Shown: one piece after another, positions 1 to 5,551 of the stretch
Position numbering within the stretch: the stretch's first letter is position 1
Layout of the letters: each line of letters begins with the position of its first letter
From: a virus
Lineage: Duplodnaviria; Heunggongvirae; Uroviricota; Caudoviricetes
DNA length: 5,551 nucleotides
IMG/VR virus record: IMGVR_UViG_2690316166_000013
Span: 1-5,551 of that record
Strand: one strand, 5' to 3'
Program-made: the position numbers and the translations under genes
Notes under the pieces: model-generated
Seen by the model: the letters and a program-made list of their open reading frames with translations, nothing else
The model's database searches: none
What the model was told of the DNA's origin: nothing

Positions 1-3000
1 AAACGTCCGAGACGAACGCCAGGTCTTCTGAAACGGCAGCGGGACAGAGTGCCTCAGCTGCGGCAGGCTCAAAAACAGCGGCTGCGTCGTCTGCCAGCGC
101 CGCGTCAACAAGTGCCGGGCAGGCCTCAGCCAGTGCCACCGCCGCCGGAAAATCGGCAGAAAGCGCCGCATCATCCGCTTCAACAGCCACAACGAAGGCT
201 GGCGAAGCCACTGAGCAGGCCACGGCAGCAGCGAGGTCAGCTTCCGCAGCGAAGACATCCGAAACGAACGCGAAAGCGTCGGAAACCAGCGCAGAATCCT
301 CAAAAACGGCTGCCGCATCGTCCGCCAGTTCGGCGGCGTCATCGGCATCATCGGCGTCTGCTTCAAAAGATGAGGCGACCAGACAGGCGTCAGCAGCGAA
401 GGGCAGCGCCACGACGGCATCCACGAAGGCGACAGAGGCTGCTGGTAGTGCGACGGCAGCAGCTCAGAGCAAAAGTACGGCGGAATCCGCGGCAACGCGC
501 GCCGAGACAGCAGCTAAACGGGCAGAGGATATTGCATCCGCCGTGGCGCTTGAGGATGCAAGTACGACGAAAAAGGGGATAGTACAGCTCAGTAGTGCGA
601 CTAACAGCACTTCCGAGTCACTGGCGGCAACACCAAAAGCCGTTAAGGCCGCGTATGACCTGGCTAACGGGAAATACACCGCACAGGATGCAACGACAGC
701 ACAGAAAGGGATAATCCAGCTAAGCAGCGCGACCAACAGCACGTCTGAAACGCTGGCGGCAACGCCAAAGGCAGTAAAAGCAGCCAATGACAATGCTGAG
801 AAACGTCTGCAGAAAGATCAGAACGGTGCGGATATCCCTGGCAAAGACACCTTTACGAAAAATATTGGTGCCTGCCGTGCCTTCGGTGGGTCAGTAAGCA
901 CAACAACAGGAAACTGGACGACTGCACAGTTTATCGAGTGGCTGGATTCTCAGGGAGCATTTAACCATCCATACTGGATGTGCAAGGGTTCCTGGTCTTA
1001 TGGCAATAATAAAATCATTACTGATACTGGCTGCGGTAATATTCATCTCGCCGGAGCTGTCATTGAAGTAATGGGGATAAAGTCAGCGATGACGATCCGC
1101 ATTACCACTCCGACCACATCCAGCGGTGGCGGAACAACCAACGCCCAGTTTACCTATATTAATCACGGAACAGATTATTCACCTGGCTGGCGAAGGGACT
1201 ATAACTCCAGAAATAAGCCAACGGCATCAGAGATCGGGGCGCTACCGTCAGGTGGAACAGCAGTATCATCAGTTAATCTGGCTTCAAAAGGTCGGGTAGC
1301 CGCGCTGACAGACAATACGCAGGGGGCAGCAGGTCTTGAGTTATACGAGGTGTATAACAACGGATATCCAACAGCGTATGGAAATATCATTCACCTGAAA
1401 GGGATGACAGCCGTTGGCGAAGGTGAGTTACTCATCGGCTGGAGTGGTACAAGCGGTGCTCATGCTCCGGCATTTATTCGTTCACGACGGGATACGACCG
1501 ACGCAAACTGGTCGCCGTGGGCGCAGCTTTACACCTCGGCTCATCCTCCTGCAGAGTTTTATCCAGTCGGTGCACCAATCCCGTGGCCATCAGATACCGT
1601 TCCGTCTGGTTATGCCCTGATGCAGGGGCAGACTTTTGACAAATCTGCTTACCCGAAACTTGCAGCCGCTTATCCGTCAGGCGTGATCCCTGATATGCGT
1701 GGCTGGACGATTAAGGGCAAGCCCGCCAGTGGTCGTGCCGTATTGTCTCAGGAACAGGACGGCATTAAATCGCACACCCACAGCGCCAGCGCATCCAGTA
1801 CGGATTTGGGGACGAAAACCACATCGTCGTTTGATTACGGCACTAAATCCACGAATAACACCGGGGCGCATACGCACAGTCTGAGCGGCTCTACAAGTTC
1901 AGCTGGGGCCCACCAACATAGTCAGACTGGGCCCAGAACGAATAGCGGGAGTCAACCTACTGGAATGTTTCCGGCAGGGAGTACTCAAGTTAGCGGGACT
2001 AATCAGGTTGGTATCAGTGGCTCATTAACCAGTGGCACCTCCCAATGGGTAATCGTTAACGATAACTTGTCGTGCAAAAAACTTTTTGCCACAGACGAAA
2101 TTGTAGCGCGTGGTGGTAATCAGATTCGAATGATAGGTGGGGAGTATGGTGCATTATGGCGTAATGATGGCGCTAAAACTTACCTGCTGCTTACCAATCA
2201 AGGTGATGTTTATGGTGGCTGGAATACATTAAGACCGTTTGCTATTGATAACGCAACCGGCGAACTGGTTATTGGAACCAAACTGTCCGCAAGTCTGAAC
2301 GGTAATGCATTAACAGCAACAAAGCTGCAAACGCCAAGACTGGTTTCTGGTGTTGAGTTTGATGGTTCCAGAGATATTACTTTAACCGCTGCGCATGTTG
2401 CTGCTTTTGCCAGAAGAGCAACGGATACGTATGCCGATGCGGATGGGGGCGTTCCCTGGAATGCCGAATCAGGCGCTTACAATGTCACCCGCTCTGGCTA
2501 CAGCTATATTCTGGTTAACTTCTATACCGGAGTCGGAAGTTGCCGGACCTTGCAGATGAAGGCGCATTACAGAAATGGTGGTCTGTTCTACCGTTCTTCA
2601 AGAGACGGTTATGGTTTTGAGGAAGATTGGGCAGAAGTTTATACCTCGAAAAATCTTCCACCAGAAAGCTACCCAGTCGGCGCACCAATCCCGTGGCCAT
2701 CAGATACCGTTCCGTCTGGTTATGCCCTGATGCAGGGGCAGACTTTTGACAAATCTGCATACCCGAAACTTGCAGCGGCTTATCCGTCAGGCGTTATTCC
2801 TGATATGCGTGGCTGGACGATTAAGGGCAAGCCCGCCAGTGGTCGTGCCGTATTGTCTCAGGAACAGGACGGCATTAAATCGCACACCCACAGCGCCAGC
2901 GCATCCAGTACGGATTTGGGTACGAAAACCACATCGTCGTTTGATTACGGTACTAAATCCACGAATAACACTGGTGCGCATACCCATAGTTTAAGTGGCA

Positions 3001-3359
3001 GCACGAATGCAGCTGGTAATCACAGCCATAGAGATGGCCGTCGATTTAACCCCAGTGTTTTTAAAGATACTTATCAATATGGTTATACAAGCTCAGGTCA
3101 AAATACTTGGGGTGTACAAGGCTCAGTAGGTATGTCTACGGGGTGGTTAGCTAATACCAGTACAGATGGTAATCATAGCCACTCACTGTCCGGCACAGCA
3201 GCATCTGCAGGTGCACACGCACATACTGTCGGTATTGGTGCTCATACGCACTCTGTTGCGATTGGTTCACATGGACACACCATCACCGTTAACGCTGCTG
3301 GTAACGCGGAAAACACCGTCAAAAACATCGCATTTAACTATATTGTGAGGCTTGCATGA
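1..3359 (+). CDS. stf: Side tail fibre protein (lambda Stf-like), 5'-partial; the gene starts upstream of the window
   Basis: Frame beginning at nt 3 is open with no stop to TGA 3357-3359 (translated by hand: [20 protein letters not shown]...). The ORF track starts it at 543 only because no ATG/GTG/TTG occurs earlier in frame. Ala/Ser/Thr/Lys-rich N-terminal region, twin GI(V/I)[11 protein letters not shown](S/T)LAATPKAVK motifs, PIPWPSD...[13 protein letters not shown] module, C-terminal His boxes ([30 protein letters not shown]) and terminal [22 protein letters not shown] match lambda Stf as I recall it. At least 1118 codons in window. Confidence 0.9.
573..836 (+). repeat. Tandem pair of phage-tail-fibre repeat motifs (132-nt period), coding, inside stf
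   Basis: [32 protein letters not shown] (from ~573) and [32 protein letters not shown] (from ~705) lie 44 codons apart; nucleotide copies are diverged but clearly related. Confidence 0.6.
1563..1870 (+). repeat. Intragenic direct repeat, copy A (partner at 2673-2980)
   Basis: Hand alignment of 1573-1860 against 2683-2970 shows 7 mismatches in 288 bp, including a 122-bp perfect block (1689-1810 = 2799-2920). Offset is exactly 1110 bp. Both copies encode the identical peptide [112 protein letters not shown]. Confidence 0.85.
2673..2980 (+). repeat. Intragenic direct repeat, copy B (partner at 1563-1870)
   Basis: Same alignment as copy A; identity decays after ~2970 but the protein stays similar ([20 protein letters not shown] vs [20 protein letters not shown]). 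Confidence 0.85.
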
Positions 3360-4246
3360 TTACGCTCATTCTTTCTGCACCAGTAACAGAAATGGCTGAA
3401 GCATTTAAGCGGGTATTTGCAAACGCAGATAATGTGAATATTGTCGGAAAGCCATTTGAAACAATCAGAGAATTTGACTGCATGGTAAGTGCGGCAAATA
3501 GTTTCGGCCTGATGGATGGCGGCGTTGATGCCGCCATTACCGCATTCTTCGGTACTCAGTTACAGTCCCGCGTTCAGAATCATATTCTTCGTGAATATCT
3601 AGGCGAACAGCCTGTAGGTTCTGCATTTGTAATTGAAACGGGGCATAATCATCACCCCTGGCTGGTACATGCGCCAACAATGCGTGTTCCGCTGACAATT
3701 GACGGAACAGACGCTGTATATAATGCAACCTGGGCCGCTCTGCTTGCCATCTTTCAGCACAATAAAAACGCAACGACAGACAGGAAAATAAAGACGGTGG
3801 TATTCCCTGCAATGGGGGCCGGATGTGGTCAGGTTCCGTTTGAAAGCGTTGCCTGGCAAATGAAGCAGGCATGGGATAACTTTAATAAGAAAACAGAATC
3901 AATTTACTGGGAATACGCACACTCCCGCCAGTCGGCAGTATTTGGCACATATGCATACTGTCCGGGTAATTCTGTTTGCCGTTATGCGGATACTAAATAT
4001 ATTGGATGCGGCGATTATCGGACGTATTGCTCACGTTCCGGGCAGTTCTGTATTAGCCATGTGCATCAGGCTGATGACGTGCTGACTAATAATCGCTCTC
4101 GCCCTGATTCGCATACACACCGGTTTAATCCAGAAAATCCCGTAGGCAATCTCACCTCTGGCGCACATAGCCACGGAAGTAGCATCGTTATTGGTGCTCC
4201 CACCCATACGCTCAATAAACAATATTCTGTCTCTGATATTAAGTAG
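3356..4246 (+). CDS. Macro-domain (ADP-ribose binding / ADP-ribosyl hydrolase-like) protein with Cys-rich, His-box tail-fibre-like C-terminal extension; function unknown
   Basis: 296-codon ORF. ATG 3356 overlaps the stf stop (ATGA, 3356-3359) and has GAGG at 3347-3350. Macro-domain motifs seen in the translation: SAAN (N48, nt 3497-3499), [11 protein letters not shown] (aa 51-61) and [14 protein letters not shown] (aa 148-161), comparable to the NAAN / GGGVDGAI / FPAISTG motifs of YmdB/MacroD. C-terminal aa ~181-296 contain C-x5-C-x9-C-x6-C-x6-C followed by DSHTH...[17 protein letters not shown]. Stop TAG 4244-4246. Confidence 0.7.
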
Positions 4247-4254
4247 AGGTGAAC

Positions 4255-4771
4255 ATGGATTTTAGAATGACTGAACAACCACGGACCATAAAAATTTATA
4301 ATTTGCTGGCCGGAACTAATGAATTTATTGGTGAAGGTGACGCATATATTCCGCCTCATACAGGTCTGCCTGCAAACATCGTGGCATCTCGTTGAAGATC
4401 ATCGGGGTAAAACGGTTTATGACGTGGCTTCCGGCGACGCGTTATTTATTTCTGAACTCGGCTCATTACCGGAAAATGTCACCTGGTTATCCCCGGAAGG
4501 GGAGTTTCAGAAGTGGAACGGCACAGCCTGGGTGAAGGATACGGAAGCAGAAAAACTGTTCCGGATCCGGGAGGCGGAAGAAACAAAAAACAGCCTGATG
4601 CAGGTAGCCAGTGAGCATATAGCGCCGCTTCAGGATGCTGTGGATCTGGAGATCGCAACGGAGAAAGAAACCTTGTTGCTGGAAGCCTGGAAAAAGTATC
4701 GGGTGTTGCTGAACCGTGTTGATACATCAACTGCACCGGATATTGAATGGCCAGTAGCACCTATAGGGTAA
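4255..4771 (+). pseudogene. tfa: Tail fibre assembly protein (lambda Tfa-like), disrupted by a frameshift / internal deletion
   Basis: ATG 4255 with GAGG at 4246-4249. Frame 1 reads [41 protein letters not shown], then IVASR and TGA at 4393-4395. The rest of the Tfa-like sequence ([133 protein letters not shown] 4769-4771) continues in the +1 frame from ~4379. Against lambda Tfa as I recall it, ~22 codons ([22 protein letters not shown]) are missing at the junction, a deletion of 3n+2 nt. Confidence 0.75.
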
Positions 4772-4853
4772 ATTCGTAATGATTACCTAAATACGTTATT
4801 CTTTTGTTAAAAAAGTGATTTTGCTATAGGTAGGGAGTATGTTCTTGGATTAA

Positions 4854-4888
4854 GAATAAAAAATCGCCATGAAAGAGCTTCATGGCGA
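4854..4888 (-). terminator. Rho-independent terminator for a minus-strand transcript
   Basis: Perfect 10-bp stem TCGCCATGAA (4864-4873) / TTCATGGCGA (4879-4888) with 5-nt loop. On the minus strand the hairpin is followed by TTTTTTATT (complement of 4854-4862). There is no T-run after it on the + strand. Confidence 0.45.
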
Positions 4889-5036
4889 GTACATAAACGT
4901 ACAAAATGTGATGAAAGTAGAGTGGCGTAAGCCACTATATTAAGATATGACAATAGCGAAGAAAAGTAAATAACATTTTATGGACGTTTAATTGTTAATT
5001 ATAAAAACTAGAGTGCCCGATATTGTTTATCTTGCT

Positions 5037-5138
5037 TTAAAATAATGTACTCAAACCAAATTTTTGAGCTAAAAGCTCAAATAATATAAATGCAATAATA
5101 ATGTTTAATAAGACAATTAGCTTGCTTTGTATTTTCAT
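5037..5138 (-). CDS. Candidate small hydrophobic protein (33 aa), hypothetical
   Basis: Minus-strand ATG (5138-5136) to TAA (5039-5037) encodes MKIQSKLIVLLNIIIAFILFELLAQKFGLSTLF: basic N-terminus then one predicted transmembrane helix. Possible sigma70 promoter upstream on the minus strand (TTGACT, complement of 5196-5201; 17-bp spacer; TATTGT, complement of 5173-5178) and the terminator at 4854-4888 downstream. No clear Shine-Dalgarno; below the ORF-track size cutoff. Confidence 0.2.
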   Translation of the reverse strand: MKIQSKLIVLLNIIIAFILFELLAQKFGLSTLF

Positions 5139-5520
5139 TTCGGAATACTGTTAAGTAACTTTGATGACCCTAACAATAGATCGGAATTTTCTTAGAGTCA
5201 ATGGTCACTGTTTTTGCTTGCAAAGCAAATGTTTTGGTGGTTATAAGTTGTCTTAATATAGTCACGCATGCAACTTGTTCCATGCGGAGATTAAAGATTG
5301 GAATATAACGCGAAGATGGAATTAAATTACATTTGCAATAATCAATTTATTATTACTCAATAATTACCGATATTATTATTGTAAATTAATCATTAGAGTG
5401 CAAAAAGAAATGTAACGGCAAAATAAGAGGACGATAGCTGAGAAAAAAGCGTGCTTTCCCAATCTGGGGCAAATCACGTCTGAATGACACCTGAAAACAG
5501 GTGGTAGCCTCAAGAAGGCT

Positions 5521-5551
5521 GGTGATGCTGCCAACTTACTGATTTAGTGTA
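5521..5551 (+). mobile_element. IS1 insertion sequence, left terminal inverted repeat (element continues past the window end)
   Basis: GGTGATGCTGCCAACTTACTGATTTAGTGTA matches the first 31 nt of IS1 (IRL GGTGATGCTGCCAACTTACTGAT...) as I recall it. Confidence 0.85.

Follow-up and report, generated by a model that had tools for sequence, protein, structure and literature searches.

What does a predicted ADP-ribose-handling enzyme do in the tail-fibre operon of a phage? The question is raised by a stretch of 5,551 nt (the window) from a tailed-phage record, IMGVR_UViG_2690316166_000013, in which a complete macro-domain gene lies between the side tail fibre gene stf and its chaperone gene tfa. The features of this region are as follows.

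1–3359, + strand: stf, side tail fibre gene; 5' end outside the window, frame open from base 3
3347–3350, + strand: GAGG Shine-Dalgarno motif inside the last stf codons (GTG AGG CTT GCA), 5 nt before the macro ATG
3356–3359, + strand: ATGA overlap; the macro ATG (3356–3358) shares bases with the stf stop TGA (3357–3359)
3356–4246, + strand: macro-domain gene, complete; ATG start, 296 codons and TAG stop; PHROG 2613 over its full length (E = 6e-140)
3356–3943, + strand: macro domain (residues 1–196) of the Ymx7/YMR087W type, from AF2, Foldseek, profile and conservation; loops N48, D54-G-G-V-D58 and G154-A-G-C-G158
3944–4084, + strand: Cys4 segment (residues 197–243); C202, C208, C225 and C232 invariant, beta-hairpins predicted
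4085–4243, + strand: variable His-x-His tail (residues 244–296); H253-T-H255, H271-S-H273 and a degenerate P282-T-H284
4246–4252, + strand: GAGGTGA Shine-Dalgarno motif for tfa (ATG at 4255), brought by the cassette and missing from the macro-less junction L172
4255–4395, + strand: 5' fragment of tfa, 46 codons followed by a premature TGA (4393–4395), from alignment with L172
4377/4378, + strand: junction of a 65-nt deletion in tfa, with CA microhomology
4379–4771, + strand: rest of tfa, out of frame with its own start and within the ORF 4319–4771; Pfam Caudo_TAP (E = 2e-44)

An exact insertion in the fibre locus

The product of stf shows Pfam matches to Phage_fiber_2, Collar (two) and Gp34_trimer (two). 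Its last 300 aa match PDB 2XGF (T4 gp37) with an E-value of 5e-86, and its C-terminal tip is, by sequence, homologous to the receptor-binding tip of T4 gp37. An earlier note on this DNA described a 296-codon ORF that overlaps the stf stop and ends 8 nt before tfa, and the sequence confirms it: the macro stop TAG (4244–4246) is followed by the 8 nt AGGTGAAC and then by the ATG at 4255, which opens a Tfa-like frame. The translational coupling to stf that it proposed is supported, as is coupling to tfa. The stf–tfa junction L172, which has no macro gene but is otherwise near-identical, reads ...GCATAATGGCA, and the GAGG that precedes the macro ATG is, on this reading, the motif that serves tfa there. 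The cassette has thus been inserted exactly where the final stf codon meets the start codon of tfa; the inserted gene takes the ribosome-binding site normally serving tfa and supplies a new one for tfa. A fusion of Stf with the macro protein by read-through or frameshifting was rejected, because the stf frame runs into another stop after 9 codons and a slippery heptamer is absent at the junction.

The insertion is a recurrent one. Among 90 loci with the gene, 89 show the same ATGA overlap, behind a fibre ORF ending in [FYL]NYIVRLA, and all 86 downstream ORFs were Tfa-like. The phage backgrounds are lambda-, N15-, P2- and Mu-like. The gene is missing from otherwise near-identical junctions of lambda-type prophages, such as L172, and Gifsy-2 lacks it while Gifsy-1 has it. 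The placement between stf and tfa given in the earlier note is supported. Presence/absence polymorphism between conserved flanks is typical of a moron, but the other marks of one, namely a promoter and terminator of its own and a deviant base composition, were not found: the gene is coupled to its neighbours, and promoter-like sites numbered 6 against 7.1 expected. The GC content of the macro ORF (0.466) is, as had been noted by eye, below that of the stf 5' part (0.58), but it matches those of the adjacent stf 3' part (0.481) and tfa (0.478). GC is therefore uninformative on a foreign origin, and the argument for such an origin from base composition was dropped.

An intact tfa behind the macro ORF, as first assumed, is not what the window contains. 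The 65-nt deletion shifts the frame, so that the ORF from 4255 stops after 46 codons, and tfa in the window is a frameshifted pseudogene. The nearest relative also changes at 4377/4378, from pAH01-1-like sequences to chromosomal macro-less prophages, and the exact arrangement of the window was not found in any complete E. coli genome of the collection. The broken neighbour indicates that this prophage is decaying, which would suit the possibility, raised in the earlier note, that the macro ORF is an untranslated remnant, or else a chance ORF. Such a reading is already refuted by conservation, and its probability is close to nil: of the 128 E. coli records, 127 contain a full-length copy, and the gene has 1,712 database relatives, shows dN/dS values of 0.10–0.45 and keeps its start context in 89/90 loci.

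Among 5,426 complete E. coli genomes, 128 carry the gene, in 131 places. A query of tfa plus its downstream sequence matched 15,827 places in complete E. coli genomes, ~99% of them without the macro gene, including places with near-identical flanks. This distribution bears on a role in fibre maturation, in which the protein would be a second chaperone or an enzyme that frees the fibre or Tfa of an ADP-ribosyl mark. The position is that of a fibre accessory gene, the gene is translationally coupled to fibre and tfa, and its tail, described below, resembles the substrate of Tfa. However, the many macro-less places and the lack of the gene in Gifsy-2 make such a factor highly improbable, and the macro ORF gave zero matches to the chaperone family Caudo_TAP, to which the following gene belongs.

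Orthologues are found in Gifsy-1, in the Salmonella phages SEN4/SEN5 and in the E. coli phage Chuche. The earlier note knew of no described macro gene at this position; databases do hold it, as PHROG 2613 (function unknown), as 'macro domain-containing protein' by PGAP in the 128 complete E. coli genomes, and as STM2588.1n of Gifsy-1, annotated 'contains pfam01661, Macro'. The gene is thus known and annotated, and the literature searched gave no described function for any member. In a 2007 microarray paper, an operon STM2586-STM2587-STM2588 is listed as MX-responsive, with only one of the three genes significant; whether STM2587 is the macro ORF is uncertain, and the listing was set aside.

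A macro domain of the Ymx7 type

Residues 44–166 of the product match Pfam Macro (PF01661) far beyond chance (E = 3.9e-18; 65.9 bits, cut-off 22). The AF2 model has a pLDDT of ~97 across residues 1–196 and adopts the three-layer alpha/beta/alpha macro fold. Foldseek returned 197 PDB matches at E ≤ 0.001, and all 50 of those listed are macro domains or macro-scaffold designs. The top match is PDB 1njr (Ymx7; E = 3.5e-11, the next match being at 3.6e-7), which is also the best match of a profile search against the PDB (E = 9e-16, profile positions 3–179). By structure and by profile, the domain is therefore closest to the Ymx7 subfamily, N-terminal extension included. The macro identity claimed in the earlier note and its N-terminal location both stand, while the extent of ~1–180 proved too short, the domain running over residues 1–196.

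The signature motifs, N48-x6-G55-G56-V57-D58-A-A-I and F150-P-A-M-G154-A-G156-C-G158, lie where they had been claimed and are invariant among 17 relatives of the phage clade (63–94% identity). They contain the two ADP-ribose-binding loops, N-x6-GG-[VLI]-D and G-x-G-x-G. In 84 sequences, down to 32% identity, N48, D54, G55, G56, D58 and G158 are at least 90% conserved, and the dN/dS of the domain is 0.10–0.14. Model, profile and conservation together establish residues 1–196 as a Ymx7-type macro domain with an intact predicted ADP-ribose pocket, and the gene as one encoding a predicted ADP-ribose-handling enzyme. Standalone cellular proteins of cyanobacteria and Chloroflexi share ~50% identity with the domain. 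No recurrent neighbour gene was found at 77 loci of cellular homologues and, without conserved neighbours, these do not allow the substrate to be inferred.

The DarT link suggested in the earlier note found no support. With NCBIfam antitoxin_DarG the score is 12.7 bits (cut-off 250), and the PADLOC DarG model gives a partial match over 44 residues (E = 0.0077); with the models this far below threshold, DarG/anti-DarT membership was rejected. Neither a DarT-binding C-terminal domain nor an adjacent DarT gene is present, the C-terminus consisting of the Cys4 segment and the His-x-His tail and the neighbours being the fibre gene and tfa. Relatives that lack the tail occupy other positions. One is next to methyltransferase and ParB_N genes, upstream of terminase, further ones are among small early genes, and a tail-less member of PHROG 2613 is located inside the structural/ejection module of the Microcystis phage Mae-JY35. 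Distant homologues in jumbo and Rhizobium phages bear the names 'tail protein' or 'tail assembly-like', to which their context gives no backing; the database name 'phage tail protein' is an unsupported annotation carry-over.

The Cys4 segment and the His-x-His tail

The C-terminal part, which the earlier note did not see, is the most informative feature of the protein. It comprises the Cys4 segment, with strands at a pLDDT of 58–68 and a dN/dS of 0.18–0.26, which is probably a metal site, and the His-x-His tail, with a pLDDT below 50 as a monomer and a dN/dS of 0.35–0.45. None of the three regions reaches a dN/dS of 1, so that purifying selection acts on the ORF throughout. Each tail has one to three His-x-His motifs of the needle-repeat type; in the window copy the third is degenerate, APTHT where relatives show AHTHT. 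By blastp, tails and fibres share up to 51% identity over 39 aa. Compared with the last 140 aa of fibres, the tails have a median z of 5.1 against composition-preserving shuffles, and z exceeds 3 in 35 of 36. The tail thus resembles, in its sequence, the metal-binding needle of the fibre, of which it appears to be a look-alike. A recent duplication of the stf 3' end was rejected as its origin, DNA similarity being absent. The tail profile gave zero matches in the PDB, and AF2 of the tail alone reached a pLDDT of 46, so that its fold is not assignable.

The tail is restricted to the fibre-locus clade. Although its length varies, every full-length member at the fibre locus has it and none elsewhere does, and in an Izhakiella member the His-x-His repeats are retained despite a diverged middle part. 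When the tail was looked for on other enzymes, only fragments of its own family came up. Proteins of 101–132 aa that appear to be 'tail-only' begin at an internal Met, and the one examined (P0277) is encoded in a decayed Salmonella prophage remnant.

The cassette itself moves between the lambda-, N15-, P2- and Mu-like phages in the company of the last ~45 fibre codons and of a 5' stretch of tfa that reaches ~130 nt past the macro stop. These two flanks stayed conserved in a pairwise mosaic test, but neither the receptor-binding part of the fibre nor the 3' third of tfa did; the macro gene pairs freely with different receptor-binding heads. These data are what would be expected if the gene were a pure hitch-hiker, i.e., an ordinary ADP-ribose-metabolite enzyme (clearing, for example, ADP-ribose-1''-phosphate) whose position is due only to the fibre 3' and tfa 5' flanks acting as recombination arms, with the tail a tolerated appendage unlinked to the fibre. 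The insertion is exact, nothing but the flanks is inherited with it, an Appr-1''-pase comes nearest among characterised structures, and the tail is variable in length and under weaker constraint. Yet an appendage without a link to the fibre would hardly be shared by all full-length members at the fibre locus while missing from those elsewhere, persist as repeats where the middle part has diverged, and stay at a dN/dS below 1 beside four invariant cysteines. We regard this account as unlikely.

The same tail has kept alive, as a possibility, the display of the enzyme on the virion, an idea already put forward in the earlier note. The tail would dock on the needle or collar end of the fibre or on fibre-bound Tfa, and three macro domains per fibre would act outside the cell as a lectin or as an esterase/phosphatase on a surface sugar-phosphate. 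Strict synteny and translational coupling across four tail architectures, the fibre-needle-like tail found only in the fibre-locus clade, the constant company of the last ~45 fibre codons and the Mae-JY35 member in a structural/ejection module all fit. On the other hand, the pocket has the residues of cytoplasmic ADP-ribose enzymes, with which identity is ~50%, and the enterobacterial surface is not known to us to carry an ADP-ribose-like ligand. The protein lacks a collar, an N-terminal attachment domain and the ...NYIVRLA end of a fibre, and the names that call such proteins tail proteins are carried over. Free pairing with different receptor-binding heads and the many macro-less junctions with near-identical flanks also speak against display; lambda-type fibres assemble and work without a macro gene, as Stf/Tfa of Ur-lambda do. 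Virion display is thus doubtful, though it deserves to be kept in mind.

Proposed function and comparison with known systems

Our tentative preference is for an accessory, two-part protein of the tail-fibre operon that serves as a late, fibre-coupled, ADP-ribose-processing counter-defence enzyme and trimerises via its tail. The protein would be produced late, together with the fibre and Tfa. Its His-x-His tail and Cys4 segment would bind metal and trimerise it as the fibre needle does, possibly aided by Tfa; trimerisation is inferred here from the likeness of the tail to the needle. In the infected cell, the macro domains would bind and hydrolyse an ADP-ribose derivative that arises from an NAD+/ADP-ribose-based defence, perhaps as a signal, as a by-product or as an ADP-ribosyl mark carried by a protein or a nucleic acid. 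The late stage of infection would thereby be shielded, when structural proteins able to trigger defences accumulate. The conserved pocket, the accessory distribution and the tail-less relatives in non-fibre accessory regions favour an anti-defence role, the other of the two hypotheses in the earlier note. Side tail fibre and chaperone alleles have been reported to set sensitivity to the His-ADPR-signalling Thoeris II system (bioRxiv 10.64898/2026.06.04.730250).

Several points speak against the counter-defence model. The protein is not DarG-like, and its cellular homologues give no clue to a substrate. It is not obvious why an enzyme of the cytoplasm should need a fibre-like tail, which the model therefore under-explains, and late expression is odd against early-acting defences unless the protein is packaged. 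Packaging with early delivery, in which the protein would enter particles via the fibre/Tfa assembly line or otherwise and act against ADP-ribose-based immunity at the start of the next infection, agrees with the vicinity of ejection-type proteins in Mae-JY35. However, side or baseplate fibres remain outside the cell, and we know of no route that carries a fibre-bound protein into the cytoplasm; head-targeting or ejection-protein features are absent from the macro protein. This course of events seems very unlikely, even though passages of Iyer, Burroughs and Aravind (2022; PMC9503650) predict it generally for phage Macro genes among morphogenesis genes.

A bolder form of the late counter-defence model would see in the tail an address label taken over from the fibre needle. 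A metal-bound trimer, built with Tfa, would join the fibre–Tfa assembly complex or the finished fibre, placing three ADP-ribose hydrolase domains where a host sensor meets the complex, so that the alarm would be destroyed at its source. This form is a long shot; if true, a tail-fibre needle motif would for the first time be seen to target an enzyme cargo, in a case of trigger-tethered counter-defence.

Macro domains of phages are coming to light as means of countering immunity based on ADP-ribose. To our knowledge, those described so far mimic DarG and lie among early or accessory genes; in the present case a Ymx7-type macro subfamily, distinct from these mimics, is built into the fibre operon of at least four unrelated tail types. 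If the tail trimerises the enzyme or docks it to the fibre or Tfa, phage morphogenesis would prove to have a new means of sending an enzyme to its place, and structural proteins that trigger immunity would be tied to the antidote. If the protein is instead a plain metabolite phosphatase on recombination-prone flanks, it would be a tidy example of conserved fibre/tfa ends spreading cargo. The gene lends itself to testing, being present in Gifsy-1 of Salmonella LT2 and in the cultured phages Chuche and SEN4/SEN5.

Among known systems, lambda tfa, P2 G, Mu U and T4 gp38 are, like the macro gene, encoded right after a gp37/Stf-type fibre gene and translationally coupled to it, but the macro gene shares no sequence or fold kinship with them, Pfam finding Macro only. 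Since Tfa follows the macro gene, the latter is dispensable for the locus. The needle of T4 gp37 and lambda Stf (2XGF) has repeated G-A-H-x-H motifs at a spacing of 9–18 residues, which also occur in the macro tail. Yet the macro protein has only one to three of them and no collar, receptor-binding head or ...NYIVRLA end, and does not qualify as a fibre.

Yeast Ymx7/YMR087W (ADP-ribose-1''-monophosphatase, 1NJR) is the best structural and profile match over residues 3–179, including the N-terminal beta-alpha extension, and has both the NS[FY]G-x-x-GG-x-D and the G-x-G-x-G loops in common with the phage protein. Identity is ~20%, however, and Ymx7 has neither a Cys4 nor a His-x-His tail. Ymx7 is a cellular enzyme tied to a tRNA-splicing by-product, whereas the phage protein is, by sequence and fold, a putative enzyme.

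DarG-type phage macro domains, which neutralise DarT and reverse ADP-ribosylation defence (PMC13309987, PMC11481870), are likewise phage-encoded but have another genome position and no fibre-like tail. Of the Macro/NADAR/Nudix genes treated by Iyer and colleagues, passages of that paper describe Macro genes in structural operons, among virion genes, that are predicted to counter ADP-ribose signals (PMC9503650). These are in head-packaging, terminase/portal neighbourhoods, and a fibre–tfa cassette or a fibre-like tail goes unmentioned in the passages searched. The closest counterparts are STM2588.1n of Gifsy-1 and the genes of SEN4/SEN5 and Chuche, with 62–99% full-length identity and the same position between fibre gene and tfa. 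The window copy differs from them in its degenerate third His-x-His motif and the broken tfa beside it, and is otherwise essentially the same.

Layout of the fibre locus

The macro gene lies between the side tail fibre gene (stf) and the gene for the fibre assembly chaperone (tfa), with the following features:

stf, 5' end beyond the window's 5' edge, + strand: side tail fibre gene with Pfam matches to Phage_fiber_2, Collar (two) and Gp34_trimer (two)
3356–3359, + strand: ATGA, overlap of the stf stop and the macro start
3356–4246, + strand: macro gene, ATG-initiated ORF of 296 codons with a TAG stop at 4244–4246
8 nt from the macro stop to the tfa ATG (4255), + strand: spacer containing GAGGTGA
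from 4255, + strand: tfa (Caudo_TAP, E = 2e-44), broken in the window

The last 300 residues of Stf match the receptor-binding tip of T4 gp37 (PDB 2XGF, E = 5e-86), and the match takes in the His-x-His needle motifs as well as the C-terminal end. With two collar-plus-needle modules, the fibre encoded in the window is chimeric, and a tip region is present in it as an internal copy. The gene also holds a 300-nt direct repeat (1518–1817 and 2628–2927, 92% identity).

Compared with intact copies, the tfa of the window lacks 65 nt at 4377/4378, with a CA microhomology at the junction. The frame from 4255 therefore ends at a stop at 4393–4395 after 46 codons; the rest of the Tfa sequence is in another frame, and the pseudogene spans 4255–4771. 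The plasmid-prophage pAH01-1 shares 98.8% identity with the window up to the deletion; beyond it, the window is ~98% identical to chromosomal prophages without the macro gene. Since the nearest relative changes at this very point, the deletion looks like the scar of the illegitimate recombination that brought the cassette in. The combination of macro cassette, deleted tfa and downstream DNA was found in no complete E. coli genome of the collection, and the closest complete E. coli record covers 69% of window 3000–5551.

An Rfam match to IS009 (RF02111; 218 bits, gathering score 117) at 4533–4731 lies wholly within tfa coding sequence. The DNA 3' of tfa (4772–5551) is AT-rich (GC 0.32) and carries a strong palindromic, terminator-like hairpin at 4864–4888, read on the − strand. 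Its counterpart in other E. coli strains lies at the prophage end, ~3.5 kb from ybhB-bioA, which is the lambda attachment region.

The macro domain and its C-terminal extension

The macro-domain assignment of the earlier note was confirmed by independent searches. Pfam Macro matches residues 44–166 (E = 3.9e-18, 65.9 bits, threshold 22), and an AlphaFold2 model built from 84 sequences has a pLDDT of ~97 over residues 1–196. The fold thus sits at the N-terminus as predicted, but extends beyond the ~180 residues first proposed. The listed Foldseek matches in the PDB were all macro domains or designed proteins built on a macro scaffold. Ahead of the rest by four orders of magnitude was yeast Ymx7/YMR087W (1NJR; E = 3.5e-11, 201 aligned columns), an entry titled ADP-ribose-1''-monophosphatase. 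A family profile searched against the PDB also placed 1NJR first (E = 9e-16), aligned over profile positions 3–179, so the unusual N-terminal extension belongs to the Ymx7-type subfamily. No variation at N48, D54-G-G-V-D58 and G154-A-G-C-G158 is seen in the phage clade, and in the 84 sequences, which reach down to 32% identity, N48, D54, G55, G56, D58 and G158 are conserved at 90% or more. By sequence and predicted fold, the product is a Ymx7-type member of the macro superfamily with a putative enzymatic activity. DarG, fibre and Tfa were also considered as its identity and were all rejected.

The family comprises 2,320 clusters at 50% identity (E ≤ 0.001), mostly standalone proteins of ~200 residues, with some eukaryotic fusions. 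The nearest cellular relatives, from cyanobacteria, Chloroflexi and similar groups, are ~50% identical over residues 1–195. No recurrent gene neighbour was found among them; hence, genome context does not point to a substrate.

The last 100 residues, overlooked in the earlier note, comprise a Cys4 segment and a His-x-His tail. In an alignment of 17 relatives, the Cys4 segment (residues 197–243) has four invariant cysteines (C202, C208, C225 and C232) within the motif AYCP-x4-C-x2-A-x3-YIG-x-GDYRTYC-x2-SG-x2-CI. The tail, from about residue 244, varies in length and carries one to three G-A-H-x-H repeats. It resembles the needle repeats near the fibre C-terminus, with blastp identity reaching 51% over a 39-residue stretch. 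Compared with its own composition-preserving shuffles, the tail scored over 3 standard deviations higher in 35 of 36 distinct cases (median z 5.1). A recent duplication of stf as the origin of the tail was ruled out, there being no DNA-level similarity to stf. A tail-profile search for the tail elsewhere found only fragments of the macro family; as judged from sequence, the fibre-needle-like tail is restricted to the fibre-locus clade. Modeled as a monomer, the Cys4 part forms predicted β-hairpins of modest confidence (pLDDT 58–68) and the tail has no predicted fold, as would be expected of oligomer- or partner-dependent folding, but also compatible with disorder. The Izhakiella australiensis copy (locus L095, 2068–2970; 300 aa), also in a fibre-macro-tfa setting, has a divergent cysteine-rich middle, unrelated in sequence, yet its C-terminus retains His-x-His repeats and the ending ...GAHHHGVKK.

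Pairwise dN/dS values are 0.10–0.14 for the macro domain, 0.18–0.26 for the Cys4 segment and 0.35–0.45 for the tail, indicating that the entire ORF is translated and under purifying selection. A dead remnant, the opposing reading named in the earlier note, is thereby excluded.

A 117-aa "tail-only" ORF, P0277 (4001–4354 in loci L173–L175), is widespread in Salmonella and starts at the macro protein's internal Met169. It looks like a fossil of the macro cassette. Its surroundings are a decayed prophage remnant, in which a MAPEG-family gene (two methyltransferase genes beyond) flanks it on one side and SRAP/isochorismatase genes, near an aspartyl-tRNA synthetase-like gene, on the other.

Distribution and mobility of the cassette

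The macro gene occurs in 128 of 5,426 complete E. coli genomes, at 131 places (22 on plasmids), always named "macro domain-containing protein". A query of tfa plus downstream DNA matched 15,827 places; the macro gene is therefore present in ~1% of tfa-bearing places. Its backgrounds are diverse: an N15-like plasmid-prophage with protelomerase and lambda-type J/Lom/Stf, a P2-like prophage of O157:H7, the cultured P2-like phage Chuche, a myovirus-type Erwinia prophage, Salmonella lambda-type prophages, an Enterobacter Mu-like prophage, Gifsy-1 of Salmonella LT2 (STM2588.1n, annotated "contains pfam01661, Macro") and the Salmonella phages SEN4 and SEN5. The position and coupling to the fibre gene proposed earlier recur across loci. 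In 89 of the 90 loci analysed, a fibre ORF ending in [FYL]NYIVRLA has its stop overlapping the macro ATG, and a Tfa homologue follows in all 86 loci with a downstream ORF, starting −11 to +24 nt from the macro stop. Gifsy-1 (L090) has stf-macro-tfa, whereas in Gifsy-2 (L176) of the same LT2 strain, stf is followed directly by tfa with a 1-nt overlap, a ready-made natural comparison.

The junction without the macro gene reads ...GTGAGGCTTGCATAATGGCA, so the cassette is inserted precisely after the final fibre codon and before the tfa ATG. It uses the GAGG that normally serves tfa and brings a new GAGGTGA for tfa. Mosaicism was assessed by pairing loci with a DNA identity of 90% or more in the macro domain. 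Among these pairs, only 1% drop under 75% identity in the final 135 nt of the fibre gene; the receptor-binding part of the fibre differs in 44% and the 3' third of tfa in 42%. Thus, the mobile unit comprises the macro gene together with ~45 codons from the fibre 3' end and the 5' portion of tfa (~130 nt past the macro stop), and on these comparisons it shows no co-adaptation to any particular receptor-binding head or Tfa specificity domain. Pure hitch-hiking on flanks that recombine readily would account for this spread but leaves the tail unaccounted for, and we regard it as rather unlikely. Display of the macro protein on the fibre, which the tail favours, is somewhat more plausible, although still doubtful: the pocket is of cytoplasmic type, no attachment domain is present and the gene pairs freely with a variety of fibre heads.

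The closest tail-less relatives occupy other genome positions. The nearest (locus L177, 4134–4757; 63% identity, 207 residues) has a methyltransferase gene on one side and ParB_N genes on the other, just upstream of the terminase and portal of another phage. In two Rhizobium phages, the macro domain is encoded among small early genes. In Microcystis phage Mae-JY35 (L178, 3935–4492), a tail-less member of PHROG 2613, to which the window's macro gene also belongs, lies within the structural module, overlapping by 4 nt; among its neighbours are matches to PHROGs for a virion structural protein and a DNA ejection protein, and one neighbour has a Peptidase_S74 domain. The enzyme is therefore a recurrent phage accessory gene, sometimes inside structural operons. 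Distant homologues in jumbo and Rhizobium phages (H53–H92) carry the labels "tail protein" or "tail assembly-like protein". Both inspected Rhizobium contexts are not tail modules, and these labels were probably carried over from enterobacterial fibre-locus genes.

Candidate roles and comparison with known systems

The role we rank first, tentatively, is that of a late-acting counter-defence enzyme. The macro protein would be co-expressed late with the fibre, would trimerise in a metal-dependent manner through its His-x-His repeats, perhaps assisted by Tfa, and would hydrolyse or sequester an ADP-ribose derivative in the infected cell. The trimerisation step is drawn by analogy with the T4 gp37 needle (2XGF), which binds iron. 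Packaging of the protein for early delivery is improbable, and a role in fibre maturation slightly more so. The tail remains an odd feature that no simple model explains.

Public records and PHROGs already include annotations of the macro gene, so the gene itself is not new. The earlier statement that no macro gene was described at this position thus fails for databases but stands for the literature searched, which yielded no paper on it. The searched passages of a broad survey (PMC9503650) contain no description of the fibre-macro-tfa cassette or the fibre-like tail. The cassette is well defined, widespread and easily tested in Gifsy-1, Chuche or SEN4.

Counter-defence is placed first because the pocket is of the cytoplasmic-enzyme type, the gene is accessory and its tail-less relatives lie in accessory regions. 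Moreover, counter-defence by phage macro domains is already known (PMC13309987, PMC11481870), and macro genes in morphogenesis clusters have been predicted to play this role (PMC9503650). Sensitivity to Thoeris II, whose signal is His-ADPR, has been reported to be set by side tail fibre and chaperone alleles (preprint 10.64898/2026.06.04.730250). This finding, made in other phages and only an analogy, offers a rationale for an ADP-ribose enzyme beside fibre genes.
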